Shown: positions 15,364-57,495, counted from the stretch's first letter. The stretch: 64,000 nt of DNA from an uncultured Clostridia bacterium (GCA_964424335.1 CAYRIY010000004.1:9068-73067), one strand, 5' to 3'. Made by a program: numbers and translations. The notes: generated by a model not told the origin, from the sequence alone.

Positions 15364-15381
15364 GGCAACCGCCTCCCTTAG

Positions 15382-16770: not shown

Positions 16771-16811
16771 AAGGACAAATCGCCATCCTGTAGTAGATCT
16801 TGCAAGATCGA

Positions 16812-18682: not shown

Positions 18683-18724
18683 AGCCGCTCGAGTCCCCCT
18701 TCATCGAAACGCCGACGATGAGAT

Positions 18725-19888: not shown

Positions 19889-19909
19889 TCGATTGTTATC
19901 TACAGTGCT

Positions 19910-21031
19910 TCATACGACGCTCTCGGCAACGCCTTGTGCGACGCCGCTCTTTTTGTACGCAAGGTGTCTTGCAAACTCGGCCGGAGAGCGATCCGCCATG
20001 CTTGCAGCCTCCGTCTCGCCGGCCCGGTGAAAGGAGATCCGTCCGGTCCGGGAGTTTGCCTCCAGGAGCCAGCATCTGTAGTCTTTATCGATTGCAAAAT
20101 CGATGCCGAGTTCTGCTACGAGGCGGGTCGTCTTGCTCGTCGCCTCCGCGGTTTCGATGGCGAGGCGCTTGATGCTCTCGATGATCTCTGCGACTTGATG
20201 ATCATCCGCGCCGGTTTCGGCCAAGATTTCGTGCAATTTGCGTGCGCTTCCCCCGGCGTGGATGTTTGTGACTTTGCTCCGTCGACCGCCAAGCCGTGCG
20301 ACGACTCCGGTGACGCGCCATTCTCCGTCGCCATGACGCTGAACGAGCGCCCGGATGTCGAAAGGCCTGCCGTCGTACTTTAGGACGTCGATCGCCATCT
20401 GGACGATGCGCGGCCTTCCGCCGCCGCAGCGTGCGCTCACGGCGCCGATCGTGCGGACCATGCCCGATCGGACGCCGCGCCCTCCATGAATCCGGTACCG
20501 ATACCCTCCGGGCACGCGCTTGACCCACGCCACGCCCTTTCCCTGACCGCCGTTGATCGGTTTTACGTATACTTCACCGTACTGTTTGAGCATCGAGTAG
20601 AGCGTCGTTTTCGTCAGCACGCGGGTTGGGGGGAGGATCGGGGCGAGGGTCGGGTTTTTCCGCCATACCTTGTACATGCCCCATTTGCCCGTGAGGCGGG
20701 TGTTGAACATCGGTATCTTCATGCGCGCAAAACGACGTCGGACCGAGGGAATGCCGGCGAGGTCCGCTCTGCCTTTGGGCGACACGCGGTCGAAGACGGC
20801 GTCGGGAAATCGGTAGATTCCTTTTCGCCATCGCCCGTTCACCATTGTCCAGCCTCGAATCCGCCTGCGCGACCAGAGGACGTCGCGCGGAGAGAAGATG
20901 AACACTTCGACCCCGATGGTCCTTGCTTCCTTGATCAACCTGCGAAAAAACGTGGTCTGCTCCTGATAGGGACGGGTCTTGGATGAACGCCTGGCACAAA
21001 GGACACCTAAATAGACGTCGGGTTGTGACAA
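19910..21031 (-). CDS. YheC/YheD-family ATP-grasp protein (paralog 5), first gene of the block
   Basis: A TTG start at 21031 is preceded by AAGGGGAG; the ORF as tracked from 21223 is probably over-extended. Signatures: YLGVL, MFNTRLTGKW, VYVKPINGGQGKG, PFDIRALVQ, NIHAGGSA, ELGIDFAIDKDYRCWLLEANSR. Confidence 0.65.
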   Translation of the reverse strand: MSQPDVYLGVLCARRSSKTRPYQEQTTFFRRLIKEARTIGVEVFIFSPRDVLWSRRRIRGWTMVNGRWRKGIYRFPDAVFDRVSPKGRADLAGIPSVRRRFARMKIPMFNTRLTGKWGMYKVWRKNPTLAPILPPTRVLTKTTLYSMLKQYGEVYVKPINGGQGKGVAWVKRVPGGYRYRIHGGRGVRSGMVRTIGAVSARCGGGRPRIVQMAIDVLKYDGRPFDIRALVQRHGDGEWRVTGVVARLGGRRSKVTNIHAGGSARKLHEILAETGADDHQVAEIIESIKRLAIETAEATSKTTRLVAELGIDFAIDKDYRCWLLEANSRTGRISFHRAGETEAASMADRSPAEFARHLAYKKSGVAQGVAESVV

Positions 21032-21247
21032 ACTGGAGCTCCCCTTGAGGCGGGCAGCGCCCTGGCGACACGAAACCTTTTTCGAAAACACGCGGCGAGG
21101 GCAGGGCGCGGCGAGCACGCGTTTTGGCTGTGGCAGGAGCAATGTACGCTTGAGCGAAGGCTGTTGGATACAACCCGGCGCTCCTATTTTCGAGAAGTTC
21201 GACTTCCGAACAATGGGGCGCAAACAACGTTAATGTTCGTCTTTTGC

Positions 21248-43318: not shown

Positions 43319-44023
43319 ATGTCATTCATTGACTTTATCGATCCAATCGGATTTATGCTCCTGATCCCCGCCTTCGCGCTCGCGATGTACGCCCAGTTCA
43401 AGGTGCAGTCGACGTTTGCCAAGTACCTACAAGTGCGGGCAAAAAGCGGAATCACGGGAGCGCAGGTGGCCCGGACGCTTCTCAACGACGCCGGATTGCA
43501 CGACGTGCCGGTAGAGGTGATTCCGGGACGGCTGACCGACCACTACGATCCCAGGTCGCGCACAATGCGACTGTCGCCGGACGTGTACCACGGCACCTCC
43601 GTCGCATCGCTCGGCGTTGCCGCGCACGAGACAGGGCACGCGCTCCAGCACGCGGAAAACTACGTCCCGCTGACGATTCGCAATCAGATTTTCCCGATCG
43701 CCGCCTTCGGTTCGCAGCTTGCGATGCCGCTCTTTCTCATCGGCCTGATCTTTGCGTCTCCAGGTGTCAGTGGTTGGTTCATGGATCTTGGCATTTGGTT
43801 GTTCACCGCAGCCGTCGCGTTTCAAGTCGTCACGCTGCCGGTCGAGTTCAACGCGAGCTCGAGGGCCATGAAGCTCTTGGTCGATCGAGGCTTCATCGAT
43901 CGGGATGAGGCCCCGCGCACGCGCGCCGTCTTGAGCGCTGCGGCCCTGACCTATGTGGCGGCCGCGGCCGTGGCGGCGCTGCAGTTGCTCCGGCTCGTCC
44001 TCCTGCGTAATTCGAGGGATTAA
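43319..44023 (+). CDS. YugP-like membrane zinc metallopeptidase (Zn_peptidase_2 family)
   Basis: HExxH motif in AAHETGHALQH, flanking TM helices, and the FDPT-like N-terminus IDFIDPIGF. Confidence 0.6.
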   Translation: MSFIDFIDPIGFMLLIPAFALAMYAQFKVQSTFAKYLQVRAKSGITGAQVARTLLNDAGLHDVPVEVIPGRLTDHYDPRSRTMRLSPDVYHGTSVASLGVAAHETGHALQHAENYVPLTIRNQIFPIAAFGSQLAMPLFLIGLIFASPGVSGWFMDLGIWLFTAAVAFQVVTLPVEFNASSRAMKLLVDRGFIDRDEAPRTRAVLSAAALTYVAAAAVAALQLLRLVLLRNSRD

Positions 44024-45426
44024 TGCGGGGGCCAAGTCGGGCGCGCCTCGCGGCGGCGCATGTGCTCGAGCGGGTCGAAACGAAAGGGGCCTTTGCTCCG
44101 ATCGCGTTGACTTCGGCCATCCAGTCGCACGACCTCGCGCCTATGGATCGCAATTTGGCTACGGAAATCGTGTATGGCGTCCTCCGCTGGCGAGGACGCC
44201 TTGATTTTTACCTCTCGCGCTTTTCAAAGCGCAGGATCGGCTCCCTTTCGCCTTGGGTGCGAAACGCCATGCGGATCGGCGCCTTTCACGTTCTTTTCCA
44301 CGACTCGGTCCCTATACCAGTGGCGCTCAGCGAGAGCGTGGAGCTCGCGAAGGTGAAAGAGCGCTACGCTGCGGGCTACGTGAACGCGGTCCTCCGAGCA
44401 TTCGTGCGGGGGCGCGCCTCGGTGCGTTTCCCAGATCCAGACAAGGACATTGCCTCCTACCTCGAGACGTGGGAATCCCATCCAAGATGGCTCGTAGAGC
44501 GCTGGCTCGCCGCGTGGGGAAATGAAGGCGCCAGGTCTCTTTGCGCTACGAACAACGCGCCCGCCGACATCACCTTGCGGGTCAACGTCGCCAAAACTTC
44601 CGTCGAGGATGTGAGGGCGGGGCTGCTCAGTGTGGGAATCGAACCGAGCATGGGGCGTTTGACTCCGCATGCGCTCCGGGTTCGGGCCGCGGGCTCGGTC
44701 GAGGGCCTACCAGGCTTTGAGCAAGGTCTCTTCCACATTCAGGACGAGGGCTCTCAACTTGTCGGTTGGGCGGTGGCCCCGGACGGGCGCGGCCCCATCG
44801 CCGATGTTTGCGCCGGGCCGGGAGGGAAGACGACACACTTGGCCGAGCTTTGGCACGTTCGCTCAGGCCGAACCGAGCCCCCTGTGAGCGCCCCGATCGT
44901 CGCGTTCGACCTCCACGACCATCGCACAGCGCTCATAACAAGCAGTGCGGCCCGCCTGGGGCTGGATCGGCTCATCCGCGTCCACACAGCCGATGCGCGT
45001 GCGATCAGCCCCGATGTGTACGGCACGTTCTCTCGGGTGCTCGTCGACGCGCCCTGCACAGGGACAGGCGTCCTGCGTCGCCGCCCCGATCTGCGCTGGC
45101 AAAAGTCGCCCGAGGACGTCGCAGCGCTCGTCCAAACGCAGCGGGAGATCCTTACCGGCGCCGAGCGGCTGGTAGCAAAAGGAGGCACGCTGGTCTACTC
45201 CACGTGCAGCCTCGAGCCCGAAGAAAACATCGAAAACGCACGGTGGTTCCTGGCACGGTTCCCCGAATTTCGGCCCGAGTCGATGGCGGACGACCTCCCA
45301 TCGCTCGCGAACCTTGCAAGAGATCGATTCGCGCTCGATGGAGCCGCGCTGCAACTTGCGCCACATTTGGACGGGACGGATGGTATGTTTATTTTCCGAG
45401 CGATTCGACGAGAAGTTGGAAAATGA
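44023..45426 (+). CDS. rsmB: 16S rRNA m5C967 methyltransferase (NusB-like N-terminus plus SAM-MTase)
   Basis: DVCAGPGGKTTHLAE, ...DAPCTGTGVLRRRPD..., TLVYSTCSLEPEENE. Confidence 0.85.
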   Translation: MRGPSRARLAAAHVLERVETKGAFAPIALTSAIQSHDLAPMDRNLATEIVYGVLRWRGRLDFYLSRFSKRRIGSLSPWVRNAMRIGAFHVLFHDSVPIPVALSESVELAKVKERYAAGYVNAVLRAFVRGRASVRFPDPDKDIASYLETWESHPRWLVERWLAAWGNEGARSLCATNNAPADITLRVNVAKTSVEDVRAGLLSVGIEPSMGRLTPHALRVRAAGSVEGLPGFEQGLFHIQDEGSQLVGWAVAPDGRGPIADVCAGPGGKTTHLAELWHVRSGRTEPPVSAPIVAFDLHDHRTALITSSAARLGLDRLIRVHTADARAISPDVYGTFSRVLVDAPCTGTGVLRRRPDLRWQKSPEDVAALVQTQREILTGAERLVAKGGTLVYSTCSLEPEENIENARWFLARFPEFRPESMADDLPSLANLARDRFALDGAALQLAPHLDGTDGMFIFRAIRREVGK

Positions 45427-45499: not shown

Positions 45500-46294
45500 A
45501 TGGCTTCACGACCGATCCGAGTGATGATCGCCGACAACAACGTCGAGCTGTGTCGAACGATCCAAGAGTTCTTGACCACGCAAGGGGACATGGAGATCGC
45601 TGCAATCGCGCACGACGGCAAGGAAGCGTTGGACCGAATGGAGGAGGCGAGGCCCGACGTCGTCGTGCTCGACATCACGATGCCCAACCTCGACGGCATG
45701 GCCGTCCTGGAAAGGATGGGGAGCCTCAACCTAAACCCACGGCCGACGGTCATCGTGCTGACCGCCATGGGGCGGGAGGACATCATCCAAAGGTTTACCG
45801 AGCTTGGGGCTGAGTATTTCATTATCAAGCCATTCGACCTCGAGCTGCTCGCCGAACGCATCCGACAATTTTCGAGCGGGTCCGGATCGGCGCTCGTGGG
45901 CGAGGCGAGGGGTGATCGGGGCCTCGTCCGGGGCGTAGAAGATGCCTCACTTACCGTCACGCAGCTCCTTCACCGCATGGGCGTCCCGCCGAATTTCAAA
46001 GGTTACAACTACTTGCGTGACGGCGTTTTGATGGTGCTGCGCGACACGCAGTTGCTTGGCGGCGCATTGACAAAGCGGCTCTACCCCGAACTTGCGGAGA
46101 AGTATCGCACGACGCCCGGCGGGGTGGAAGCGGCCATTCGAAACGCGGTGCTGGCATGTTATGAGCGCGGCAATCGCGAGTTTATCGACGAGCTGTGCGG
46201 CCAGGGACCGAGAGCAAAAAAGACATGTCCCACTAACTCGATGGTCATCGCAAAGCTTGCCGACCACATTCGCTTGCAGCAAAAGGTCGGGTAA
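45500..46294 (+). CDS. spo0A: Sporulation master regulator Spo0A (receiver domain plus Spo0A-specific DNA-binding domain)
   Basis: Receiver VMIADNNVELC...DVVVLDITMPNLDGMAVLERM...YFIIKPFDLELLAERIRQ. The C-terminal domain LLHRMGVPPNFKGYNYLRDGV...LTKRLYPELAEKYRTTPGGVEAAIRNAV matches B. subtilis Spo0A [20 protein letters not shown]...[25 protein letters not shown]. Confidence 0.85.
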   Translation: MASRPIRVMIADNNVELCRTIQEFLTTQGDMEIAAIAHDGKEALDRMEEARPDVVVLDITMPNLDGMAVLERMGSLNLNPRPTVIVLTAMGREDIIQRFTELGAEYFIIKPFDLELLAERIRQFSSGSGSALVGEARGDRGLVRGVEDASLTVTQLLHRMGVPPNFKGYNYLRDGVLMVLRDTQLLGGALTKRLYPELAEKYRTTPGGVEAAIRNAVLACYERGNREFIDELCGQGPRAKKTCPTNSMVIAKLADHIRLQQKVG

Positions 46295-46308: not shown

Positions 46309-46662
46309 CTACTCACCGGGCGGCGGGCTCGCCAAGCGCCGCCCCGATCTTGAGTATTGCTCCATCTCTCTGAGCAAGTCGTCCAAGAGCTTGATTTGTT
46401 GTTCTTTGAGCCGCACGATCCGCAGCACTTTCTGGTGCAGTTGGGGGGCGCGCGTGCTTAGCATGAGGTCTTGATAGTCATTTCGCAGGAGAAGGCGTTC
46501 AAGGAGCAGGAGCTTTTCAGTAAGGTGCTCGTGCACTTTGCGTTCCCACACCCTTGTCGTCCGTGGCCTATCGCACGCGGGACGGATGACGTTTTCTACA
46601 ATCACACTATGCATCGGCCGTGCGAAAGGCGCGGGCAAAGCCGCTCCATCTTGATTACTCAA
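46309..46662 (-). CDS. Hypothetical 117-aa protein (coiled-coil-like; low confidence)
   Basis: The ORF is convergent with spo0A in a locally lower-GC stretch. No recognisable motif was found. Confidence 0.25.
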   Translation of the reverse strand: MSNQDGAALPAPFARPMHSVIVENVIRPACDRPRTTRVWERKVHEHLTEKLLLLERLLLRNDYQDLMLSTRAPQLHQKVLRIVRLKEQQIKLLDDLLREMEQYSRSGRRLASPPPGE

Positions 46663-46772: not shown

Positions 46773-46850
46773 TGGTCGGGGCGGCCAGATTTGAACTGGC
46801 GACCTCTGCGTCCCGAACGCAGCGCTCTAGCCAAGCTGAGCCACGCCCCG
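46773..46850 (-). tRNA. tRNA-Pro (anticodon CGG), CCA encoded
   Basis: The reverse complement reads CGGGGCGTGGCTCAGCTTGGCTAGAGCGCTGCGTTCGGGACGCAGAGGTCGCCAGTTCAAATCTGGCCGCCCCGACCA. Acceptor 7 bp CGGGGCG/CGCCCCG, D-stem GCTC/GAGC, anticodon stem CTGCG/CGCAG with loop TTCGGGA, T-arm GCCAG-TTCAAAT-CTGGC. Confidence 0.85.
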
Positions 46851-46880: not shown

Positions 46881-47252
46881 TTAGGGGTTGTCAATGGGCG
46901 TTGCACCTGGTTGAGTCATAAATGGATCGTTGGTGACGTCGAGACGCTCGGCCGCAAATGCGTAAAACTTTTTGAGCGTCATCGCAAGCCTGCGGCGGTA
47001 TGCAGCAGACGACGATGTCGAAAGGAACGCCTGGATGTCCTCAGGCCTGCTGTTTTGGATGAGAAATCGCAAGTAGCGGCTTGCGTCGCCGACATAGTAA
47101 TACTCAGACTTGATTCCTTGATCGTATAGGTACTCGAGGTACGCCGTTAGAAAATGTACCCTGGCTTGTTTGCTCACAGGTCGACCACACACCTTTGATT
47201 GGCGAAAAAGCCTTGCGTATGTGGTAGTGTTGCCGCAGAGGCCTTGGCACAT
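46881..47252 (-). pseudogene. Possible remnant of a tyrosine-integrase N-terminal (SAM-like core-binding) domain with no catalytic domain
   Basis: LTAYLEYLYDQGIKSEYYYVGDASRYLRFLIQN...EDIQAFLSTSSSAAYRRRLAMTLKKFYAFAAERLDVTNDPF resembles the XerD/phage-integrase N-terminal helical domain. The ORF stops where the catalytic domain would begin. It lies 31 nt from tRNA-Pro and its start abuts the rlmN start, which makes it suspect. Confidence 0.35.
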
Positions 47253-47283
47253 TTCCCAGCACTCGATTCCTCGCTCGGCAGAA

Positions 47284-48345
47284 ATGGGGAAGTTAATGTC
47301 TACCGTCTCGTCAACTCAATTACTCAACATCGTGGGGATGGATCGGGCCGAATTGCGCGACCTCATCGAGCGCGCAGGTGAACCGTCTTACCGGGCGGAG
47401 CAGATCATGCGCTGGCTGCATCAGCGGGACGTCGACTCGATCGATTCGATGACCAACCTTTCCAAGGGATTGCGCTCAGCCTTGGCCGACCAATATCGCG
47501 TCGACCGGCTGGAAACGATCGCGTGCGAACGTTCGCAAGACGGCGTCACTAAGTTGCTGATGAAGCTTTGTGACGGGTTGACGATCGAATCCGTGCTCAT
47601 ACCCGAAGGAAAGCGTCAGACCGCGTGCATATCCTCACAGGCCGGTTGCGGGATCGGTTGCGCATTTTGCGCGACGGCCCTGGGAGGGTTTAACCGCAAC
47701 CTTGCGGCAGGCGAAATCGTCGATCAAGTGCGGGCGCTGGAGGAGAGCTCCGGCCACAAAGTGACCAACGTCGTCTTCATGGGAATGGGCGAACCGTTCC
47801 AAAACTACGCCAACGTGATCAAGGCGGCCAAACTATTGAATGACCCTTGGGGAAAATCGATCGGCGCACGTCACATCACGATCTCAACCTCGGGTGTTGT
47901 GCCGATGATCGAGCGCTTTACCGAGGAACGTTTGCAGTTTGTGCTCGCGATCTCCTTGCACGCCGGCACGAATGACGTGCGTGACCGACTGGTGCCGCTC
48001 AACCGCAAGTACCCGATCGAGGCGTTGATCGATGCGTGCAGACGGTACGTGACGACGACCGGCCGGCGCGTCACGTTTGAGTACGTCATGATCGACGGCG
48101 TCAACGACGGGCTCGACCAGGCCGAGGGCGTACTAAAGCACGCGCATGGGCTCATGTGCCACGTCAACTTGATTCCCCTCAACGCGGTGCCGGAGACGGG
48201 TCTCCTTAGATCGCGCGACGATGCGATCGAAAGGTTTGCCGAGCGCTTGCGCAAGGGCGGCCTGCCGACGACGATCCGGCGAGAGCGGGGGGCCGACATT
48301 CAGGCGGCGTGCGGACAGTTGCGCAGGAGCCGTCCACGAGCTTGA
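47284..48345 (+). CDS. rlmN: 23S rRNA/tRNA m2A2503 methyltransferase (radical SAM)
   Basis: The ATG at 47284 (MGKLMSTVSSTQLLN...) is used; the tracked ORF from 47170 is probably too long. Radical-SAM Cys triad ISSQAGCGIGCAFCAT and the conserved GMGEP. Confidence 0.9.
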   Translation: MGKLMSTVSSTQLLNIVGMDRAELRDLIERAGEPSYRAEQIMRWLHQRDVDSIDSMTNLSKGLRSALADQYRVDRLETIACERSQDGVTKLLMKLCDGLTIESVLIPEGKRQTACISSQAGCGIGCAFCATALGGFNRNLAAGEIVDQVRALEESSGHKVTNVVFMGMGEPFQNYANVIKAAKLLNDPWGKSIGARHITISTSGVVPMIERFTEERLQFVLAISLHAGTNDVRDRLVPLNRKYPIEALIDACRRYVTTTGRRVTFEYVMIDGVNDGLDQAEGVLKHAHGLMCHVNLIPLNAVPETGLLRSRDDAIERFAERLRKGGLPTTIRRERGADIQAACGQLRRSRPRA

Positions 48346-48420: not shown

Positions 48421-49248
48421 ATGGGCTTGCTCTCCGACGTCGAACAACGGATCGACGCCTTAGTGCGCCGGGTCTTTCCAAAGCGCGCCGGGGATCGGGT
48501 TCAGCCGCTCGAGATCGCCCGCGAGATGGCAAAGGCGATGGAGCGACAGCGAACCCTCAGCGTCGATACCGTGTATGTCCCAAATGTGTTCCATGCCACG
48601 GTCCACGAGGACGACCTTGAAGCGTTGCGTCCCGTGTTAAACACCGTGAAGCGGGACGCCGCAAACTACGTAGAGCGTATCGCCGCAAAGCGAGGGTACT
48701 CATTTGCAGGCGCCGTTCGGCTCGAGATCTCGGCCTCCGAGCGCGCCGAAGCGGGCCGAGTCGTCGTCACGGCAAGCTTTGACGAGTCCGGAAAGGCGGC
48801 GCCAAACCGATCGGACCATACAAACGTCCAGGCGCCCGCAGGTGATGGCGCGGACTTCCAGACGAGGCGTTACGACGCACTCGTCGCGAAGACCGCGTCA
48901 CCCTCACCTCGTGTGAGCGGCGCTTCGGCGATCTTGGAAGTGGTGAGCGGCCCGGAAACCGGAAGACGATTGGAACTGAAGGGGGAGCGCACGTACCTGA
49001 TCGGGCGTCTGGAGGAGGCAGACTTGGCCTTGAGCGACACCCGCGTCTCGAAGCGGCACGCCGAGATCAGCTATCGGGATGGCGTCTGGTGGCTCACAGA
49101 TCTCGACAGCACCAACGGCACACGCAAGAATGGAAGGTCCATCGTGCAGGAGACGTTGGCTGACGGCGACCAAGTGGCCGTTGGCCTTACTACGCTCGCA
49201 TTCACGCTCGAATCGGAGCGCACCAAGATTGGACTCGATCGGGTATGA
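48421..49248 (+). CDS. FhaA-like protein: N-terminal DUF3662-like domain plus C-terminal FHA domain
   Basis: N-terminus MGLLSDVEQRIDALVRRVF...LEIAREMAKAME. C-terminal FHA (TYLIGRLEEADLALSDTRVSKRHAEISYRDGVWWLTDLDSTNGTRKNG). Confidence 0.7.
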   Translation: MGLLSDVEQRIDALVRRVFPKRAGDRVQPLEIAREMAKAMERQRTLSVDTVYVPNVFHATVHEDDLEALRPVLNTVKRDAANYVERIAAKRGYSFAGAVRLEISASERAEAGRVVVTASFDESGKAAPNRSDHTNVQAPAGDGADFQTRRYDALVAKTASPSPRVSGASAILEVVSGPETGRRLELKGERTYLIGRLEEADLALSDTRVSKRHAEISYRDGVWWLTDLDSTNGTRKNGRSIVQETLADGDQVAVGLTTLAFTLESERTKIGLDRV

Positions 49249-49715
49249 CCATGGGATCCGTGCTTTGGTGGCTCGGGCGCATGGCGTTCCTTGCCGTGCT
49301 CCTCGGTTTTATCCTCCAACTATATCGCGCGCTGGCCGCCTCGAGCCCGACGATCGATGCTCGTCGTCGCGGGCGGTCGGGACGCCTGATGCTGGAAGAG
49401 GTTGCCGAGAGCGCCGAGGTATGGTTAAAGGAGGGAACCGGCGAACAGCGAAGGCTAACCCCAGGCGCGAGGATATCCGTAACCGACTGCATCCAGATCG
49501 GACGCGGGCCCGAAAATCAACTGCGCATCGTTGATCCTTACGTCTCAACAAGGCACTGCGTGGTGCGAGAAGTGGGTGGGCAATTCATCGTAACCGACCT
49601 TGGAACGACGAATGGAACGCGCGTTGACGATCGACCTTTGACAGGCCGCGCATCCCTCGATTCGGGAATGACAATTGAAGTGGGCCGGGCGCGGTTTCGC
49701 TTTGAGGTGAAGTAA
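49245..49715 (+). CDS. FhaB/FipA-like membrane-anchored FHA-domain protein
   Basis: N-terminal TM (VLWWLGRMAFLAVLLGFIL) plus FHA (IQIGRGPENQLRIVDPYVSTRHCVVREVGGQFIVTDLGTTNGTRVDDRPL). Confidence 0.7.
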   Translation: MTMGSVLWWLGRMAFLAVLLGFILQLYRALAASSPTIDARRRGRSGRLMLEEVAESAEVWLKEGTGEQRRLTPGARISVTDCIQIGRGPENQLRIVDPYVSTRHCVVREVGGQFIVTDLGTTNGTRVDDRPLTGRASLDSGMTIEVGRARFRFEVK

Positions 49716-49719
49716 GCGT

Positions 49720-50460
49720 ATGCGAGTTGGGTACGGGACCGATGCCGGCCGGGTAAGGCCGATCAATGAAGACTGTCTGTGGGCGGACGATAAGCTCCTC
49801 GTACTGGCCGACGGCATGGGCGGGCACCAAGCAGGAGAAGTCGCGTCCCGGCTTGCCGTGGAATCGGTCGTAGCCCACTTTCAAGATCACGAGGCGCCCG
49901 CGGATTGCGAAAAATCCAGCGTGGCGATCGATCTTGTGCGCGCGTCGGTCCGCGCCGCCAATGCGCTCGTCTACTCCAAGTCGCTCCAAGCCCCCGAACT
50001 CAAAGGCATGGGCACGACGCTAACCGTCGCGCTCCTCGTCAATGGGGAAGCGGTCCTCGGCCACGTGGGAGACAGCCGCGCTTATCTCGTCCAGCCCGAG
50101 TCGATCGTCCAACTTACCGAGGACCATTCGGTCGTGTGGGAGCTCATGCGAAGCGGCAGCCTGAGCAGCCAGGAGGCGCACGTCCATCCGTACCGCAACA
50201 TGCTCACCCGCGCGCTCGGCACCGCGATGACGGTCGAAGTGGACACCGTGAGGCTTCGTTTGAAACCAACGGACGGGCTGCTGCTCTGTTCCGACGGCTT
50301 GACGGGCGTGCTCTCTGATGAGGAGATTCACGCGATCATCTCGAGCAACTCCGATCCACAAGCCGCCGTCGACGCGCTGATCGAGCAGGCAAACGCCCGC
50401 GGCGCTCCGGACAACGTCTCCGCGATCCTAGCTCTTCCGGAGGGAGACGTTCGTGGATAG
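49720..50460 (+). CDS. prpC: PP2C-family Ser/Thr phosphatase (PrpC/PstP homolog)
   Basis: RVRPINED, DGMGGHQAGEVAS, GDSRAY, SDGL motifs. Confidence 0.85.
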   Translation: MRVGYGTDAGRVRPINEDCLWADDKLLVLADGMGGHQAGEVASRLAVESVVAHFQDHEAPADCEKSSVAIDLVRASVRAANALVYSKSLQAPELKGMGTTLTVALLVNGEAVLGHVGDSRAYLVQPESIVQLTEDHSVVWELMRSGSLSSQEAHVHPYRNMLTRALGTAMTVEVDTVRLRLKPTDGLLLCSDGLTGVLSDEEIHAIISSNSDPQAAVDALIEQANARGAPDNVSAILALPEGDVRG

Positions 50461-51730
50461 ACTCGTCCTGTGGGCGCTGGGCGCGGGCAACGCGGCGATC
50501 CTCCTTGCCGAGCTAGGCCGTGACGGCGCGCTCCACCTCAGCCACTTGGCACTCCCGGTCCTGTATACGATCGCCTATGTCGGTTCCATTTGGTTTTTGC
50601 GCGCGCGCGGTCGCCCGGTCGATCCGATGTTGCTTGGCGTCGTGTGCGCCCTGACCGGGATCGGCCTTGCAGCGCTCGTCCGCCTCGACGCTGACTTGGC
50701 GTTTCGCCAGGTCAGGTGGATCATCCTCGGGATCGGTTTGTTTACGTGGATCTCCCTTGTGAGCCCGTGGAACTGGGTGAGGCGTTATCGGTACGTCTGG
50801 GCGATCGGTGGACTTGCCCTCCTATCGCTCACCGCCTTGTTTGGCGTTCGGTCAGGGGGGGCGCGCTCTTGGCTCGATCTTGGTTTTTTTAGTTTTCAGC
50901 CCGTAGAAATAGCAAAGATTTGCGTCGTCTTTTTTCTCTCGTCGTATTTGGCCGAAAATCGGATGTTCTTGACCGGCGCCCCTGGAAGAGTCGGAGGCGT
51001 GCCGGCGCGCCTTGAGCATCTTGGACCGATCGGCGCCATGGCGCTGCTTTTTGCGCTGGCCCTTGTCGCGCAAAGGGACCTTGGCGCGGCGCTCATTTTG
51101 GTCGGGCTGTGCGTTTGGATGCTCACCGCTGCGACCGGCAGGCTGTTTTACGCCGTGATTGGGGGCGGTCTCGCCGCTGCCGGCGGCGCAGCGGCCGTCT
51201 TCCTCTTCGATCACGTGCGGATCCGATTCAAAGTCTGGCTCGACCCTTGGAGCATGGCAGACGGTCCCGGCTATCAAATCGTCGAGAGCATGTTCGCACT
51301 GGCCGGAGGCGGCTTTTTCGGCTCTGGGTGGGGACACGGGTTAGCGCACCGGATTCCCGCCGTCGAGACCGACTTTATCTACAGCCTCATCGTTGAAGAG
51401 GTCGGGTTCATCGGCGCCGCAGGCCTGCTCTTTTTGTTTGCAGTCTACTGTATACGGGCGCTTCACCCCGCACTCGACCCCAACGTGGAGGACTACGTCC
51501 GCCTAGGGACAGCGGGTCTTTCCGTATTGGTGGCCATGCAAACTTTTTTGATCGTGGGCGGCGTGACGCGTCTGTTGCCTGTCACGGGTGTGACGCTCCC
51601 CTTCGTCAGTTACGGGGGGAGCTCGATGATCTCATCCTTCGTACAGCTTGGCCTTGTCAATTGCGCGCTTGTCGCAAAGGAACGAACCCTCGATGAAGTA
51701 AGCGAGGCGCCGCGATGGAACGAGGGTTGA
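50453..51730 (+). CDS. rodA: SEDS-family peptidoglycan polymerase (RodA/FtsW)
   Basis: The GTG at 50453 overlaps the PP2C stop. Multi-TM protein with the conserved FQPVEIAK and the C-terminal LPVTGVTLPFVSYGGSSMI. Confidence 0.85.
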   Translation: MDRLVLWALGAGNAAILLAELGRDGALHLSHLALPVLYTIAYVGSIWFLRARGRPVDPMLLGVVCALTGIGLAALVRLDADLAFRQVRWIILGIGLFTWISLVSPWNWVRRYRYVWAIGGLALLSLTALFGVRSGGARSWLDLGFFSFQPVEIAKICVVFFLSSYLAENRMFLTGAPGRVGGVPARLEHLGPIGAMALLFALALVAQRDLGAALILVGLCVWMLTAATGRLFYAVIGGGLAAAGGAAAVFLFDHVRIRFKVWLDPWSMADGPGYQIVESMFALAGGGFFGSGWGHGLAHRIPAVETDFIYSLIVEEVGFIGAAGLLFLFAVYCIRALHPALDPNVEDYVRLGTAGLSVLVAMQTFLIVGGVTRLLPVTGVTLPFVSYGGSSMISSFVQLGLVNCALVAKERTLDEVSEAPRWNEG

Positions 51731-53112
51731 AATGGACCAAGCGCTTGATCGTCGGAGCATTCGCCCTGCTTACAGTCTGGACTGCGTACTGGAGCGTCGT
51801 CGCCGCCCCGGCGCTTCGGGTCGATAGTCGAAACGTGCGGACTTTGCGGGAAGAGCGCTCGGTTTTGAGGGGCGAGATACTTGCTGCCGACATGCAGCCG
51901 CTCGCGGTGAACGACCCGGTGACCGGGCGCCGGACGTACGTCGGCCCGTTGTCGCTTGCCCACTTGGTGGGATACTCCGACGTGCGCTACGGCAAGTCCG
52001 GAATCGAGCGGGCTTACAACGGTGAACTGCTCGGCATGACGGATCAACTCGATCGAGCGCTCGACAAGGCGATGGGAAGGCCGCTTAGGGGCTGGGACGT
52101 CGTCACTACCATCGACCTTGAGATTCAGCGTGCGGCTCATGAAGCGCTGGGCGATCGAAAAGGGGCCGTCGTCGTACTCGATCCAAACGACGGATCGGTG
52201 CTCGCGATGGTGAGCAGCCCCACGTTCGATCCAGGTCGCCTGGGCGATGTGATCGGCCTTGCGGATGATGGCGAAGGGCCGCTCTACAATCGAGCGACGA
52301 TGGGGCAGTACCCGCCCGGCTCCGCGTTCAAGCCCGTGATCATGATCGCCGCGCTCGAAACCCGCGCCGCGGATCCGGGGTACGTTTTTGACGATCAAGG
52401 TTACGTCGTCATCAACGGCAAGCGGATTGAGAACTCCGGGCAGACGGCATACGGCCCGATTGCGCTCGACGATGCGCTTGTAGTCTCTTCGAATGCCGCG
52501 TTCGCGCATTTGGCCGTGGAAACCGGCGCTCGGGCCATCCTGGAGACCGGATGGGCGCTTGGGATCGGGATGAGGCCAAGCTTGTCGATCCCGGCGGCAG
52601 GTGGACGACTTCCCACGGCCGAGGAGGTCGCGGACGAGGCGGCGCTGGCGGCCATGGGCATCGGTCAAGGATCGCTGCTCGTCACGCCGATGCAAATGGC
52701 CATGGTCGCAGCGGCGATTGCAAACGGCGGATGGGCCGTGGAGCCGCGTGTCGTGCGCGCTTTGCGCGCGCCCGGCGGCGCGGTAAATGAGGCGCCTCAT
52801 TCCACCCCGGTGCGGGCGATCTCACCGGGCGTGGCGCACATCGTGCGTGAAGCGATGATTCGTGCCGTAGAGAGCGGAACCGGCGCCCAAGCGAAGGCGC
52901 CCGGCGTGCTCGTGGCAGGGAAGACGGGCACGGCGGAGAACCCTCACGGGCGGCCCCATGCGTGGTTCATCGGCTTTGCCCCTGCTAGATCGCCTCGCAT
53001 CGCGTTTGCAATCGTCGTTGAAAACGGCGGAGGCGGGGGCGCGCAGGCGGCTCCGATCGCACGCGCGATCGTTTCGAGCACGCTGCGTTCCAGCGCCGAA
53101 GGAGATTATTGA
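51715..53112 (+). CDS. pbpA: Class B penicillin-binding protein (transpeptidase; PbpA-like short form)
   Basis: SxxK (PGSAFKP), SxN (VSSNAAF) and KTGT (GKTGTAE) motifs, with an N-terminal TM. Confidence 0.85.
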   Translation: MERGLKWTKRLIVGAFALLTVWTAYWSVVAAPALRVDSRNVRTLREERSVLRGEILAADMQPLAVNDPVTGRRTYVGPLSLAHLVGYSDVRYGKSGIERAYNGELLGMTDQLDRALDKAMGRPLRGWDVVTTIDLEIQRAAHEALGDRKGAVVVLDPNDGSVLAMVSSPTFDPGRLGDVIGLADDGEGPLYNRATMGQYPPGSAFKPVIMIAALETRAADPGYVFDDQGYVVINGKRIENSGQTAYGPIALDDALVVSSNAAFAHLAVETGARAILETGWALGIGMRPSLSIPAAGGRLPTAEEVADEAALAAMGIGQGSLLVTPMQMAMVAAAIANGGWAVEPRVVRALRAPGGAVNEAPHSTPVRAISPGVAHIVREAMIRAVESGTGAQAKAPGVLVAGKTGTAENPHGRPHAWFIGFAPARSPRIAFAIVVENGGGGGAQAAPIARAIVSSTLRSSAEGDY

Positions 53113-53115
53113 TAC

Positions 53116-55083
53116 GTGGGTGATTTTTTGACGGGCCGGATATTGCGGGACCGCTACCAATTGCGCGATAAAGTGGGCGAAGGCGGCATGGCCGTCGTCT
53201 ACCGAGCTCAAGACATGCTGCTGGAGCGCGTCGTCGCGGTCAAGATCCTGCGCGAGCAATTCGCATCCGACCGAGAGTTTGTCGAACGCTTTCGCCTCGA
53301 GGCGCTCTCTGCCGCGAGTTTCAACCATCAAAACGTGGTCAACATCTACGATGTCGGCGAGGACGACGGCGTTTACTACATCGTGATGGAGCACGTCGAA
53401 GGGGAGACGCTCAAGGAGATCATCCGCCGCAGAGGGCGCATTCCAGAGCGCGAAGCCGTCGAGATCGCAATCCAGATCGCGGAAGGGCTCGGGGCCGCGC
53501 ACCGGCGCAACCTCGTCCACCGGGACATAAAGCCGCACAACATCCTGATCACGGACGACGGGGCCGTCAAGGTGACCGACTTCGGCATCGCCCGCGCATC
53601 GAGCGCGGCGTCGCTGACGCAGACCGGCACGGTGATCGGGTCGGTTCACTACTTCTCGCCCCAGCAGGCGCGGGGTGAGGCCGTAGACAGCGCCTCCGAC
53701 ATTTACTCCCTCGGCGTCGTGTTGTTCGAGATGTTGACCGGAAGGCTCCCGTACACGGGCGAGAGTCCCGTCGCGGTCGCGCTAAAGCACATTCAAGAGG
53801 AGCCGCCCCACGTGCGATCGATTGCCCCGGATGTGTCGATCGAAGTCGACCGGCTCGTCGCAAAAATGATGTCGAAAGAAAAGGAGCACCGCCCCGCATC
53901 GACCGCCATTTTGCTCAAAGAGCTCGACGCCGTGCGTAGGGCGTTGCCCGATCGGGCCCCTGAGTCTACGATGGATGTTGCGGGCGATACACAGGTGATG
54001 CCGGCGCTCGGCGATGACGAGAAGACGCTGGTGCGCCGCTTGGGAGAGGACGAGATTGGAATGCCCCGACCGCGCCAAAAACCCGAAAAGAGGAGAAAGC
54101 GGCGTTGGCTGTTCGCCCTGATCGTTTTTGTCGGCTTCGTGGGCGGGCTGGCCTGGGCGGCACAGCAGTTGCCGGCGCTGATCTTTCCGGAAGTCGTCCA
54201 AGTGCCCCGCCTTGCGGGACTCGACCTGGAAACGGCGCGTGAACGCCTGGCCGAACAGGGCCTACGGCTCGACCCCGACATCCAGTACACCTATAGCCGT
54301 GAAGTGGAAACGGGCTTGGTGATCCGCCAAACCCCGGACGGTGGGGCGGAGGTGCGCAAAGGCCGTGCGATACGAGTCACGGTGAGCCAAGGGCCGCGCT
54401 ATGTGGTCGTGCCGGAGGTCGTGGGACTGCGAAAGACGGAAGCGCAGCTCTCCATCACGCAGCAGGGACTCACGATGGGTGAGGTTGTCGAGGAGTTTAA
54501 TCCGAACGTCCCGCCAAATACCGTCATCGGGCAGGATCCGCCTGCCGGAACGCGGCTCGAGGAGGGACGGGCCGTCGACATCCAAGTGGCGCGTGGGAGT
54601 CAGCCGCTGACGTTGATTACGGTCCCCGACGTGCGCGGACAGACGCTCAGCCAGGCTCAGTCGCTGCTCGAGTCATTGGGGCTCGTGGCCGGGACGATCC
54701 ACGGCGAACCCAGCGTGTCGATCCAGCCCAACACAGTGATCGATCAGCATCCTAGGCCGGGAGATCAAGTCGAAGTAGGCTCCACGTTCGGCCTGATCTA
54801 CTCGGTGAGACCCGAGGAGCCGGTCGGCAGAGAAGAACCCGCAATTGCGGAGACGGCCGACAAAAACTGGGAGATTCCGGTCTTGATCGCTGTTCCCGAG
54901 GGTCCGTCACAACTCGTCGTCGTGATGGTGACGGACGATTGGTCGCCGCGCGTCGTCTACAGCGAAGTGCACCGGGGCGGATCGCGCTTTACGCACACCG
55001 TTCACGTGCGGGGCGACGAGGCGATGGTCCAGGTATGGTTTGACGGAGTGCCTCAAATGAACGAGGTGTTCCGCAGGCCGTAA
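53116..55083 (+). CDS. prkC: Ser/Thr protein kinase with a TM segment and three extracellular PASTA domains (PrkC/PknB homolog)
   Basis: GEGGMAVVYRA, HRDIKPHNIL, DFGIA, a TM (WLFALIVFVGFVGGLAW), and three repeats of ~65 aa beginning VPxVxG... Confidence 0.9.
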   Translation: MGDFLTGRILRDRYQLRDKVGEGGMAVVYRAQDMLLERVVAVKILREQFASDREFVERFRLEALSAASFNHQNVVNIYDVGEDDGVYYIVMEHVEGETLKEIIRRRGRIPEREAVEIAIQIAEGLGAAHRRNLVHRDIKPHNILITDDGAVKVTDFGIARASSAASLTQTGTVIGSVHYFSPQQARGEAVDSASDIYSLGVVLFEMLTGRLPYTGESPVAVALKHIQEEPPHVRSIAPDVSIEVDRLVAKMMSKEKEHRPASTAILLKELDAVRRALPDRAPESTMDVAGDTQVMPALGDDEKTLVRRLGEDEIGMPRPRQKPEKRRKRRWLFALIVFVGFVGGLAWAAQQLPALIFPEVVQVPRLAGLDLETARERLAEQGLRLDPDIQYTYSREVETGLVIRQTPDGGAEVRKGRAIRVTVSQGPRYVVVPEVVGLRKTEAQLSITQQGLTMGEVVEEFNPNVPPNTVIGQDPPAGTRLEEGRAVDIQVARGSQPLTLITVPDVRGQTLSQAQSLLESLGLVAGTIHGEPSVSIQPNTVIDQHPRPGDQVEVGSTFGLIYSVRPEEPVGREEPAIAETADKNWEIPVLIAVPEGPSQLVVVMVTDDWSPRVVYSEVHRGGSRFTHTVHVRGDEAMVQVWFDGVPQMNEVFRRP

Positions 55084-55128: not shown

Positions 55129-56022
55129 GTGGCAGGTGACGAAAGACGGATCGGTACGGTAACTAAGAGCGTGGGCGGGTTTCATATGATCGCGCTGCCC
55201 TCCGGCGAAGAGGTGCGGGCGGTTGCCCGGGGGCGGATCAAGCGGAAAGGGGCGATCCTCGCCGGTGATCGCGTGCTCGTGCACGTCACGAGCGAAGGCG
55301 ACGCCGTGGTTGAAGACGTCCTCGAACGCAGCTCGGTGCTGATCCGGCCGCCTGTGGCCAATGTAAGCCTTGCAGTCGTCGTCATGGCGTGCGCAAATCC
55401 CCCGCCCAACATGGAGCTCCTCGATCGAATCCTGCTCCAGGTCGAGCGGGAGGGAATTCGAGCGCTCCTCGTCTTTTCCAAGGTGGACCTGATCGCGCAA
55501 GACGAGGCCAAAAGACTTGCTGCGGCGTACGAAAAGGCGGGTTATCGAGCCGTCTTTACAAGCGTACATACGATGATTGGGATTGACGACCTCGCCGAGG
55601 AGCTGGTCGGCGAGGTGTCCGTCTTGGCCGGACCCTCCGGGGTAGGCAAGTCGAGTTTGCTAAACGCGCTCATACCGGGGGCGAACCTCGAGACGGAGGC
55701 GGTCAGCGTCAAGACCCAGAGGGGACGGCACACGACGAGAGAAGTCACCTTACTCCCACTCCCAAAGGGCGGCTGGGTTGCCGATTCGCCGGGTTTTTCG
55801 ACGCTCGCCGTTCCTGAACTCGATCCCCGCGACCTCCCAAACCTTTATCCAGAGTTTCGCGATGTCGGAAACAGTTGCCGGTTTCCTGGGTGCTTGCATC
55901 GAAAAGAGACGGGGTGCGCCGTCCAAGATGCGCTCGAGCGGGGCGATGTCGACGCCGAGCGGTATCGCCGGTACTTACGCATATTGAACGAGGTGGAACT
56001 CAACTTTGAACGCCGGTATTGA
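55129..56022 (+). CDS. rsgA: Ribosome small-subunit biogenesis GTPase RsgA/CpgA
   Basis: Circularly permuted GTPase: ...LVFSKVDL..., GPSGVGKSSLLNAL, and the C-terminal zinc finger CRFPGCLHRKETGCAV. Confidence 0.85.
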   Translation: MAGDERRIGTVTKSVGGFHMIALPSGEEVRAVARGRIKRKGAILAGDRVLVHVTSEGDAVVEDVLERSSVLIRPPVANVSLAVVVMACANPPPNMELLDRILLQVEREGIRALLVFSKVDLIAQDEAKRLAAAYEKAGYRAVFTSVHTMIGIDDLAEELVGEVSVLAGPSGVGKSSLLNALIPGANLETEAVSVKTQRGRHTTREVTLLPLPKGGWVADSPGFSTLAVPELDPRDLPNLYPEFRDVGNSCRFPGCLHRKETGCAVQDALERGDVDAERYRRYLRILNEVELNFERRY

Positions 56023-56683
56023 TATAACGAACGTAAAGATTGCGCCGTCCCTGCTTGCTGCAGACTTCACCAGGTTAGCCGATTCACTCGATTCGGTGCG
56101 ATCGGCCGATTGGCTGCACCTCGATGTGATGGACGGCTGCTTTGTTCCCAACATTTCCTTTGGGCCCGGAATCATCAAGGCGCTGCGCCCGATCTGCGAT
56201 CTCTTCTTTGACGTGCATCTCATGATCGTCGATCCTGAGCGGTACATCGCCGACTTCGTCGATGCCGGCGCCGACAGGATCACCGTCCACGCCGAAGCCT
56301 GTCGACACTTGCATTCGACGCTTCAAAAGATCAACGAGGCGGGCGTCAAGGCTGGTGTGGCTCTCAACCCGGCAACGGGCATCGAGGCGGTCAAACACGT
56401 GGCGCACCTCGTCGATTTGATCCTCGTGATGACGGTAAATCCGGGGTTTGGCGGGCAGCGCTTTCTCCAGGAGACACTCGTCAAGGTGGAGGAGGCGGCG
56501 AGGCTTGCGAGCGATATGAACTTAAAGCTCGAAATCGAAGTGGACGGCGGCGTCGGACCGGACAACGCTGGACTTTGCGCCCGCGCCGGCGCGACCGCCC
56601 TCGTAGCGGGGACTGCAGTCTTTCAATCGCCTGATCCAGCAGGCGTAATCCGTCTCATGAGAGAGCGAACCCGTGAGCGCTAA
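56006..56683 (+). CDS. rpe: Ribulose-phosphate 3-epimerase
   Basis: KIAPSLLAADF...LHLDVMDG...FVPNISFGP, VMTVNPGFGGQ. Confidence 0.9.
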   Translation: MNAGIDITNVKIAPSLLAADFTRLADSLDSVRSADWLHLDVMDGCFVPNISFGPGIIKALRPICDLFFDVHLMIVDPERYIADFVDAGADRITVHAEACRHLHSTLQKINEAGVKAGVALNPATGIEAVKHVAHLVDLILVMTVNPGFGGQRFLQETLVKVEEAARLASDMNLKLEIEVDGGVGPDNAGLCARAGATALVAGTAVFQSPDPAGVIRLMRERTRER

Positions 56684-57045
56684 GTAGCCGGAACAACGTC
56701 ACGATCTGTAACCTAAATCAAAACTGCAAATTGAGTTAAGTATAACTTGACTACAAGGTGTGCAGAGGTATATATTGGGACCAAGCGACACGGTCTCCGG
56801 GCGGTTCCACTTTAGACAGGGGGCGGCGCTTCACGGACAAGTAAAATCTCCGGGTGATCCCGAAGAGCGCGCCCAGCGCGCACACACAAAAGACTGAAAA
56901 GAGCGATTCAAAACAAAATAAAAACTTCCCCTCATGGGCATGGCTGGTGACGAACCTGGGCAGAGATCGACACATCTAAAAGGCGGACGCCCGGGGGCCG
57001 TTGTCGACTTTCAAACAGTGGGCGTGCGAAAGGGGAACGAGAAGC

Positions 57046-57495
57046 GTGGCACTCATCTTGGTGGGGTGGCGGACCGATGGGCGAATGTACGAAGTGCTGT
57101 CGGATCTCGACATCCCCGAGGGACTTCAATGGTATCCGGGAAACGAGGTGCGAAGCGAACAGGAACTGACGTTGACGCTCAACTTGCTTGGATCTGAGCC
57201 GATGCTGATCTTTGCGCGGGCAAACGAGCGCGACATCAAAGCGCTCGGCTCGTGGCTGACGGATCACGCGCCATCCCTAGATCGGGTGGAAACCGCGGTG
57301 ATCGGAGATGATTGGAAAGAGATTTTGCACTCCCTGGAGCCGACGCTCGACTGGCCGAAATGGCCGCTCGCTTGGTTTCCGTTTTATAAGGAATCAAGCG
57401 AGCTGCAAGGAAGGCTTGAATACCTGGCTCGCCGTGTCCAAGCAGGCGGGCGGGTCGAAAGGGCGGCAGTGGAGGCGGGCCAATCTATTAGTTAG
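57046..57495 (+). CDS. Hypothetical protein (~149 aa), no recognisable motif
   Basis: A GTG at 57046 is preceded by AAAGGGGA. It follows a ~300-nt untranslated, relatively AT-rich region with a promoter-like TTGACT...TATATT at ~56748-56777. Confidence 0.35.
   Translation: MALILVGWRTDGRMYEVLSDLDIPEGLQWYPGNEVRSEQELTLTLNLLGSEPMLIFARANERDIKALGSWLTDHAPSLDRVETAVIGDDWKEILHSLEPTLDWPKWPLAWFPFYKESSELQGRLEYLARRVQAGGRVERAAVEAGQSIS

Follow-up and report, generated by a model that had tools for sequence, protein, structure and literature searches.

Introduction

Why should six genes in the order of the actinobacterial cell-wall growth operon be located between rlmN and rsgA, where Bacillus subtilis has the pair prpC-prkC (yloN(rlmN)-prpC-prkC-cpgA(rsgA)-rpe; PMC8359813)? 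The question was raised by a stretch of 64,000 nucleotides from an uncultured Clostridia bacterium, here called the window. A first, sequence-only reading regarded the cluster as a hallmark of Actinobacteria and considered a deep-branching or mosaic lineage. The comparisons described below point to a different answer, namely that the cluster very probably represents an ancient, conserved operon for cell-wall growth and phospho-signalling in its Bacillota form, inherited vertically and located at the standard Firmicute site rlmN/rsgA-rpe.

The six-gene arrangement as such is already known: complete, annotated genomes from cultured Firmicutes contain it, and it is noted in one sentence and a supplementary figure of a 2019 paper, where the pknB-fhaA cluster is called "conserved in a subset of the Firmicutes", i.e., in a minority of them (PMC6554272). 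Experimental work on the cluster in any Firmicute was not found in the literature. Jones and Dyson are said to have probably described this synteny in 2006.

Results and Discussion

Organization of the cluster

The existence of the cluster at positions 48421-55083 was confirmed (Table 1). The list of open reading frames and the Pfam assignments agreed exactly with the sequence-only reading, which had proposed six genes of these types on the plus strand with overlapping or abutting boundaries. The genes are tightly packed in the order fhaA-like, fhaB-like, PP2C phosphatase, SEDS polymerase, PbpA-type penicillin-binding protein (PBP) and PASTA kinase, with successive spacings of -4 (the fhaB-like start overlaps the fhaA stop in ATGA), +4, -8, -16 and +3 nt; rsgA starts 45 nt after the kinase gene. 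All six domain architectures were present (ORF list, Pfam, NCBIfam), and the catalytic and binding motifs are intact. Scans for promoters and terminators yielded counts at or below those of shuffled sequence, with no internal terminator signal in the cluster above shuffle expectation, and the 75-nt gap between rlmN and fhaA did not contain a clear promoter. The limits of the operon were therefore taken from gene spacing only.

Table 1. Features of the cluster and its flanks, with coordinates counted from the first letter of the window
Feature	Position	Strand	Length	Evidence	Remarks
rsmB	44023..45426	+		Pfam NusB, RsmF-B_ferredox, Methyltr_RsmB-F	Upstream flank of conserved block
spo0A	45500..46294	+		NCBIfam TIGR02875, 277.6 bits (cutoff 200)	Between rsmB and rlmN
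tRNA-Pro (cgg)	46773..46850	-		ARAGORN; Rfam tRNA, 63.2 bits	
rlmN	47170..48345	+		Pfam RlmN_N, Radical_SAM	Left anchor of site
fhaA-like	48421..49248	+	275 aa	Pfam FhaA_N, 84.8 bits (model positions 1-114/115); FHA, 63 bits	
fhaB/fipA-like	49245..49715	+	156 aa	Pfam FHA, 56 bits	One hydrophobic segment, ~residues 5-33
PP2C Ser/Thr phosphatase, Stp1/IreP (PrpC) type	49720..50460	+	246 aa	Pfam PP2C_2/PP2C; NCBIfam NF033484	
SEDS glycosyltransferase (RodA/FtsW family)	50453..51730	+	425 aa	Pfam FTSW_RODA_SPOVE, 240.9 bits	Multiple TM segments
PbpA-type class-B PBP	51715..53112	+	465 aa	Pfam PBP_dimer_2 (PF21922), 39.7 bits (cutoff 27); Transpeptidase PF00905, 202 bits	
PASTA Ser/Thr kinase (Stk1/PrkC/PknB family)	53116..55083	+	655 aa	Pfam Pkinase, 3 PASTA; NCBIfam NF033483	
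rsgA	55129..56022	+		Pfam RsgA_GTPase	Right anchor of site
rpe	56006..56683	+		Pfam Ribul_P_3_epim	

FHA proteins

The first protein of the cluster matched both domains of Mycobacterium tuberculosis FhaA. It consists of FhaA_N (DUF3662) at the N-terminus (residues 1-120), a disordered linker of about 45 aa with a conserved T148-x-x-Y151 motif, and an FHA domain (about residues 168-262), whose pocket for phospho-threonine (G-R ... S-x-x-H ... N-G) is intact; both characters of the FhaA family were therewith found. Its N-terminal domain was without a match in a phmmer search of the PDB. The M. tuberculosis protein is larger than that of the window, with about 527 aa and a long linker.

The second protein has the transmembrane (TM) and FHA layout of M. 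tuberculosis FhaB and aligned end-to-end with FhaB of Actinomycetota, i.e., across phyla. The characters of FhaB/FipA (Rv0019c) were present: a size of about 155 aa, an N-terminal membrane anchor followed by a C-terminal FHA domain (residues 84-147 by Pfam), and a location directly downstream of fhaA. With the NCBIfam model FhaB_Rv0019c (NF049868) a score of 67.1 bits was obtained over positions 6-157 of 158, which is below the cutoff of 125. By this score the protein is to be regarded as a divergent counterpart of FhaB and not as a curated equivalog.

Phosphatase and kinase

The names PstP and PknB, which had been given to the phosphatase and the kinase from the sequence alone, were not supported, as both proteins were identified by NCBIfam as equivalogs of the Firmicute type (Stp1/Stk1) rather than as PstP and PknA-PknB. 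The phosphatase scored 261.8 bits with NF033484 (Stp1/IreP/PrpC; cutoff 230; positions 2-231/232). TM prediction for its 246 aa did not reveal a membrane segment, and it is a soluble enzyme, in contrast to M. tuberculosis PstP, whose PP2C domain is linked via a TM helix to an extracellular domain. The median length of the phosphatase reading frame was 395 aa in loci of the Actinomycetota type versus 237.5 aa in those of the Bacillota type.

The kinase scored 601.5 bits with NF033483 (cutoff 450), which places it with the Stk1/PrkC/PknB PASTA kinases. It contains a kinase domain with the motifs VAVK40, HRDIK135 and DFG155 and an activation loop with TQTGT, a TM segment (330-352), three PASTA repeats and an additional C-terminal domain of about 95 aa, a layout similar to that of PrkC; the counterpart in M. 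tuberculosis has four PASTA repeats. It is the only kinase gene of the cluster, whereas the actinobacterial seven-gene operon possesses pknA and pknB in tandem.

SEDS polymerase and penicillin-binding protein

The SEDS protein scored below the NCBIfam cutoff of every subfamily, i.e., ftsW (229.5; cutoff 337.5), rodA (205.6; cutoff 336.7) and spoVE (180.4; cutoff 448.8). By these scores it is not assignable to one subfamily, and its placement in the SEDS family is by Pfam only; the name RodA is used here because of the synteny with actinobacterial rodA.

The identification of the class-B PBP as PbpA was corroborated by its PBP_dimer_2 domain and its best PDB matches. The protein has a TM anchor and the transpeptidase motifs S203AFK, S258SN and K403TG, and its pedestal is replaced by a PBPA dimerisation domain. 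The best matches in the PDB were PbpA-like chains of 482 and 462 aa, aligned over the full length with E values of about 1e-59, including M. tuberculosis PBPA (3un7/3lo7), which shares the dimerisation domain and was closest to the protein of the window; the value for MrdA in the same comparison was 4e-44. Class-B PBPs with the PBPA dimerisation domain occur mainly in Actinomycetota and Bacillota (PMC12516126). A sporulation-specific pair similar to SpoVE/SpoVD was also considered and was rejected on account of the scores (spoVE, 180 versus a cutoff of 449; spoVD, 158 versus 688) and the PbpA-type dimerisation domain.

Chromosomal site

The flanking genes bore out the proposal of a Bacillus-like block from yloA to rpe. 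Upstream of rlmN, Pfam revealed priA, def, fmt, a Zn-peptidase gene and rsmB, with yloA/NFACT, a yloB-type ATPase gene, yicC and gmk farther upstream in the window, and rsgA-rpe follows downstream of the cluster. The start of rlmN is probably located downstream of the TTG at 47170, since homologues have about 348 aa; on an identical metagenome contig (L002) the gene call was 349 aa.

Between rsmB and rlmN the window contains spo0A and a tRNA-Pro gene, which were absent from the description in the sequence-only reading. A promoter-like site with 11 of 12 matching positions (46894-46865) was present just upstream of the tRNA gene, and an Rfam scan of the window did not show RNA families other than tRNA. 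The same position of spo0A was observed in four other loci (L005, L090, L091, L092); this is a lineage-specific placement, which is common to Limnochordia loci.

Distribution in Bacillota and Actinomycetota

Genome contigs were scanned with the profile of the FhaA_N domain. Thermoleophilia were dominant among the matches listed, which also included Pelotomaculum and two metagenome-assembled genomes (MAGs) with Firmicute synteny. With gene order and rlmN/rsgA-rpe site unchanged, the six genes were found in Desulfofundulus kuznetsovii DSM 6115 (L087; CP002770.1), Pelotomaculum thermopropionicum SI (L088; AP009389.1), the draft genome of P. terephthalicicum, a Thermoanaerobacteraceae MAG, a Limnochordia MAG (L092), other Bacillota MAGs, and the two closest relatives of the window (L090 and L005); the six-gene cluster of the window is identical in arrangement with that in L005, L090, L092, L087, L088, L089, L027 and L012.

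In P. thermopropionicum and D. kuznetsovii the context priA-def-fmt-(DUF116)-rsmB-rlmN-six genes-rsgA-rpe is similar to that of the window, and the Pfam architectures are the same, including PBP_dimer_2 and the short soluble PP2C phosphatase, with protein identities of 30-47% over the six genes. The window differs in having Zn_peptidase_2 where these genomes have DUF116, in spo0A and tRNA-Pro between rsmB and rlmN, and in its class: both genomes are from Desulfotomaculia, whereas the lineage of the window is probably related to Limnochordia, because of its nearest named kinase homologues and the spo0A synteny which is common to Limnochordia loci. A deep-branching position is plausible with such relatives, but the presence of the cluster does not imply one.

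A reduced form was found in Carboxydichorda subterranea, where the same site reads rlmN-PP2C-kinase-rsgA, with spo0A upstream as in the window and rlmN split over two frames (tblastn). The window shares flanking genes and site with C. subterranea and B. subtilis, and its phosphatase and kinase score above the Stp1/IreP and Stk1 cutoffs; it has in addition the two FHA genes before the phosphatase gene and the SEDS/PbpA pair between phosphatase and kinase. The presence of a prpC-prkC form within Limnochordia points to patchy loss.

Among the matches listed, 57 loci of the Actinomycetota type, from a sample skewed to Thermoleophilia, had the six-gene order of the window; rlmN, rsgA or rpe was beside the cluster in none of the Actinomycetota loci among these matches. 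The order of fhaA, fhaB, phosphatase, SEDS, PbpA and PASTA kinase is also that of M. tuberculosis fhaA-fhaB-pstP-rodA-pbpA-pknA-pknB (Rv0020c-Rv0014c). The actinobacterial cluster is located near the replication origin, whereas the window has the Firmicute yloA-rpe block as context. The description as an actinobacterial hallmark is correct with respect to the gene order, but order and site are shared by several Bacillota, and in the lineage of the window itself (L090, L005 and the Limnochordia MAG, all at the same site) the arrangement is standard, which the sequence-only reading had itself named as a ground for refutation.

Origin of the cluster

Unrooted neighbor-joining (NJ) distance trees, which bear on nesting within the sampled Actinomycetota only, placed the Bacillota copies in one clan for PknB (190/200), RodA (117/200), FhaA (83/200) and a four-gene concatenate (155/200), the support for RodA and FhaA being moderate. 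In the trees for PstP and PbpA the Bacillota copies grouped with two Actinomycetota loci, L007 (Ca. Aquicultor) and L040 (concat3, 200/200). Nesting of Bacillota copies inside derived Actinomycetota was never observed in these trees. The GC content was 0.62-0.64 across the cluster, equal to that of the flanks, and GC3 was 0.64-0.77, as in neighbouring genes.

These data bear on a mosaic genome, in which the whole cluster, or else fhaAB and rodA-pbpA as parts of it, would have been brought fairly recently from an actinobacterium into a prpC-prkC locus. Such an event could account for the gene order, which is the same as in Actinomycetota, and for the sites of B. subtilis and C. subterranea, where the four extra genes are missing. 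It is opposed by the occurrence of the same arrangement and site in three or more classes of Bacillota and in all three of the closest relatives, by the Stp1/Stk1 type of phosphatase and kinase (the former soluble and of about 240 aa versus the Actinomycetota median given above, the latter without a pknA neighbour), and by the requirement for two separate insertions, one on either side of the phosphatase gene. Since the Bacillota copies group together, with the proteins of the window among them, and the base composition is uniform, there is no support for a recent transfer or, consequently, for a mosaic genome; this part of the sequence-only reading is largely refuted, and a recent import must be considered extremely improbable.

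Alternatively, the operon could have arisen in one phylum, Actinomycetota or Bacillota, been transferred a single time to an early representative of the other, and been inherited vertically from then on, without descent from the common ancestor. The different genomic sites in the two phyla would fit such a transfer, as would the patchiness within Bacillota (reduced in C. subterranea; a "minority of Firmicutes", PMC6554272) and the grouping of L007 and L040 with Bacillota for PstP and PbpA. On the other hand, the prpC-prkC core is reported to be universal in both phyla (PMC6554272), so that loss is a simple explanation of the patchiness, and no result obtained here favours transfer over common descent. 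The clan structure is compatible with either scenario, and trees of this kind do not tell a very old transfer between the phyla from common ancestry; on balance, such a transfer appears unlikely.

The cluster was thus very probably inherited vertically within Bacillota, with no recent import from Actinobacteria, and is at least as old as the ancestor that Desulfotomaculia share with the Limnochordia-like lineage of the window. The rlmN-prpC-prkC-rsgA locus of B. subtilis is then the reduced form of the same locus, from which fhaAB and the SEDS/PbpA pair were lost, and full and reduced forms exist side by side within Limnochordia.

Possible function and significance

FHA-mediated phospho-signalling from the kinase to the wall synthases can reasonably be inferred. 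By homology, the extracellular PASTA repeats would sense lipid II or muropeptides and thereby activate the kinase, which would phosphorylate its own threonines and those of morphogenetic proteins; in FhaA, the conserved TxxY motif of the linker is a possible target. The cytoplasmic FhaA-like and the membrane-anchored FhaB-like proteins could then dock on these phospho-threonines through their intact FHA pockets and tune the supply of lipid II as well as the SEDS/PbpA pair of peptidoglycan synthases encoded with them; the soluble Stp1-type phosphatase would reset the system. The targets are conjecture, because the genome is known here from the window alone and because the MviN pseudokinase domain, the partner of mycobacterial FhaA, is not known from Firmicutes. 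In mycobacteria FhaA has a role in peptidoglycan synthesis via phosphorylated MviN and CwlM, and binding of FhaA to these phosphorylated PknB substrates (MviN pseudokinase, CwlM) is known for mycobacteria only (PMC11898655).

A more far-reaching interpretation, which we consider doubtful as a whole, would combine these points: the six-gene operon would be ancestral to Bacillota and Actinomycetota, and prpC-prkC of Bacilli a twice-deleted remnant; in thin-walled, deep-branching Bacillota, the lineage of the window among them, SEDS/PbpA could act as the principal synthase of elongation, under FHA/phospho-threonine control via the TxxY motif of FhaA, and the upstream spo0A could perhaps couple the module to entry into sporulation.

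The value of the cluster is in its context, and it is of little value as a discovery. The operon which has been taken for an actinobacterial hallmark is rather a feature common to Gram-positive lineages, which was reduced in Bacilli, and the full and reduced forms within one class, the Limnochordia, provide natural pairs for comparison.

Gene cluster and chromosomal surroundings

The six open reading frames which the sequence-only reading had placed between rlmN and rsgA were all found in the ORF list, with identical coordinates. Their junctions are, in order, -4, +4, -8, -16 and +3 nt, the first of them (fhaA/fhaB) being an overlap of the type ATGA; fhaA is preceded by GAGGTG as ribosome-binding site, and a scan against shuffled sequence yielded no terminator signals above expectation inside the cluster. 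Upstream of the cluster are priA-def-fmt-Zn peptidase-rsmB, then rlmN, and farther upstream NFACT/yloA, a P-type ATPase gene, yicC and gmk; downstream are rsgA-rpe and later a DAK2/FakA-like gene. The genes for Spo0A and tRNA-Pro had not been mentioned in the sequence-only reading. Unannotated ORFs in the rpe-rpmB slot are likewise present in relatives.

Positions of features in the window
Feature	Position	Strand	Properties
ATP-grasp block	9672-21223	-	between pyr and pur operons
spo0A	45500-46294	+	TIGR02875, 277.6 bits (cutoff 200); between rsmB and rlmN
ORF	46309-46662	-	117 aa; GC3 coding-like; no NCBIfam match
tRNA-Pro(cgg)	46773-46850	-	between spo0A and rlmN
Promoter-like site TTGACA-18-TAGAAT	46894-46865	-	directly upstream of tRNA-Pro; 11/12 consensus matches
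FhaA-like	48421-49248	+	275 aa; FhaA_N and FHA (Pfam)
FhaA linker motif	48862-48873		T148-R-R-Y151
FhaB-like	49245-49715	+	156 aa; one N-terminal hydrophobic segment, then FHA
PP2C phosphatase	49720-50460	+	246 aa; PP2C
SEDS protein	50453-51730	+	425 aa; SEDS
Class-B PBP	51715-53112	+	465 aa; PBP_dimer_2 and transpeptidase
PASTA kinase	53116-55083	+	655 aa; kinase and 3 PASTA
ORF	57001-57495	+	164 aa; GC3 coding-like; no NCBIfam match; rpe-rpmB slot

The ATP-grasp block contains a GT4 glycosyltransferase gene and seven ATP-grasp paralogues, of which five are YheC/D-like (PF14398) and two belong to COOH-NH2 ligase type 2 (PF14395). YheC and YheD of B. subtilis are associated with the spore coat.

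Properties of the proteins

Both FHA proteins proved to be true counterparts of FhaA and FhaB, as had been proposed. The FhaA_N match spans the entire Pfam model (E 7.7e-24), and in an AlphaFold model with 30 homologues as input (pLDDT 84.8) the two domains are ordered, whereas residues 129-161, the linker, are disordered. The FhaB-like protein and FhaB of Actinomycetota could be aligned over their whole length, membrane anchor and pocket residues (G-R/S-x-x-H/N-G-T) included; since it scored 67 bits on the NCBIfam equivalog FhaB_Rv0019c, below the cutoff of 125, it is regarded as a divergent positional counterpart. A linker motif, [E/D]-x-T-x-x-[Y/F], was kept in 27 of 30 FhaA-like proteins, which were from Bacillota and some Actinomycetota, and a second, D/N-T-[A/S]-P, occurs in many. 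Judged from sequence, these motifs are candidate kinase targets (phospho-acceptors) or FHA-docking (ligand) sites.

The class-B PBP is PbpA-type: the solved structures closest to it were PbpA-like chains, M. tuberculosis PBPA among them (full length, E about 1e-59; MrdA 4e-44). Its motifs SxxK, SxN and KTG are intact. PBPs with a PBPA_dimer domain are mainly from Actinomycetota and Bacillota (PMC12516126). The SEDS protein scored below all three NCBIfam subfamily cutoffs (ftsW, rodA, spoVE). The soluble phosphatase exceeded the Stp1/IreP equivalog cutoff (261.8 vs 230) and the kinase that of the Stk1 PASTA kinases (601.5 vs 450); by these profiles, both are Firmicute-type parts. Besides its PASTA repeats, the kinase has a domain of about 95 aa at the C-terminus. 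The median phosphatase ORF was 237.5 aa in 8 Bacillota-type loci, compared with 395 aa in 57 Actinomycetota-type loci. The actinobacterial operon contains pknA, whereas the window cluster does not.

Distribution and origin

The block Zn peptidase-rsmB-spo0A-...-rlmN-six genes-rsgA-rpe was present in one of the closest relatives (L090, an ENA contig; 59-85% identity); the other (L005, GCA_041686855.1; 43-78%) had the same order, but rsmB was missing at that position. A Limnochordia MAG (L092) also contained the block. The identical set of six genes, with rlmN and rsgA-rpe on either side and priA-def-fmt-rsmB upstream, was found in the complete genomes of Desulfofundulus kuznetsovii DSM 6115 and Pelotomaculum thermopropionicum SI, and in P. 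terephthalicicum JT, a Thermoanaerobacteraceae MAG (L089) and a Bacillota MAG (L012). A profile search with 8000 scored candidates gave at least 2141 FhaA_N+FHA proteins at E<=1e-10, with Desulfotomaculum, Desulfofundulus, Pelotomaculum, Desulfocucumaceae, Thermoanaerobacteraceae and several "Bacillota bacterium" MAGs among the named sources. PMC6554272 describes the pknB-fhaA cluster as conserved in a subset of Firmicutes, and its S1 speaks of a "minority of Firmicutes"; the arrangement is thus already known and not unusual for a Firmicute. The proposal that an actinobacterial-style cluster in a Bacillus-like block indicates a mosaic or unusual lineage therefore falls by its own test, the same order being present in the closest relatives and other Firmicutes.

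Two labels look like mis-binning or mis-classification: a "Deltaproteobacteria" MAG (L009, JAGUVT010000033.1) carries the full Firmicute-type block, in which the six genes follow priA-def-fmt-rsmB and precede rsgA-rpe, but its fhaA is interrupted by a frameshift and rlmN gave no match; an "Acidobacteriota" MAG (L030, JBGUDX010000042.1) carries an Actinomycetota-type cluster with long PstP.

In unrooted neighbor-joining trees (64 loci, 200 bootstraps), the eight Bacillota-type loci formed one clan in those of PknB (190/200), RodA (117/200), FhaA (83/200) and a four-gene concatenate (155/200). In the PstP and PbpA trees this clan also included the Actinomycetota loci L007 (Candidatus Aquicultor) and L040, a grouping obtained in 200/200 replicates with a three-gene concatenate. 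Window copies were never inside derived Actinomycetota. Among the matches listed, none of the Actinomycetota clusters was next to rlmN, rsgA or rpe. The GC content of the cluster is 0.62-0.64, and GC and GC3 resemble those of the flanks. Recent transfer into the window lineage is therefore rejected; common descent and very ancient transfer are not separable in unrooted trees.

The Candidatus Aquicultor MAGs L007 and L008 possess a short, Firmicute-like PP2C of 255 aa. Together with the grouping of L007 and L040 with Bacillota, this is compatible with a soluble phosphatase as the older state.

Lineage and possible function

Among named kinase homologues, the nearest was from a Clostridia MAG (59%), followed by those of Limnochordia and Limnochordales MAGs (about 48%) and of Carboxydichorda subterranea (L091; 44%), which belongs to the class Limnochordia. 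In the housekeeping block upstream of rlmN, spo0A is also found in both close relatives (L005 7064-7864, L090 7123-7914) and two Limnochordia genomes (L091 7046-7891, L092 586-1380), directly after rsmB in the window, L090 and L091, and after the Zn peptidase gene in L005 and L092. It is absent from this place in the Desulfofundulus, Pelotomaculum and L089 loci, and its placement is a possible class-level marker of synteny.

Carboxydichorda subterranea has the reduced form, rsmB-spo0A-rlmN-PP2C-kinase-rsgA-rpe, with none of fhaA, fhaB, SEDS and PbpA at its rlmN/rsgA site. Its rlmN is split between two frames (tblastn, 8222-8857 and 8862-9215 of L091, from the complete genome CP141615.1), and no more than a fragment of 122 aa had been annotated by gene calling; either the gene is a pseudogene with a frameshift or the assembly is in error. 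Limnochordia thus include both the full and the reduced form, which is most simply explained by loss, because the gene order of the full form equals that of Actinomycetota.

Judged from homology to the mycobacterial system (PMC11898655, PMC6554272), the PASTA kinase would phosphorylate threonines of morphogenetic proteins, and the catalytic and binding motifs required are all intact. Both FHA proteins would act as readers of the phospho-threonine marks and as modulators of lipid II supply and of the SEDS/PbpA synthase encoded beside them, and the Stp1-type phosphatase would remove the marks.
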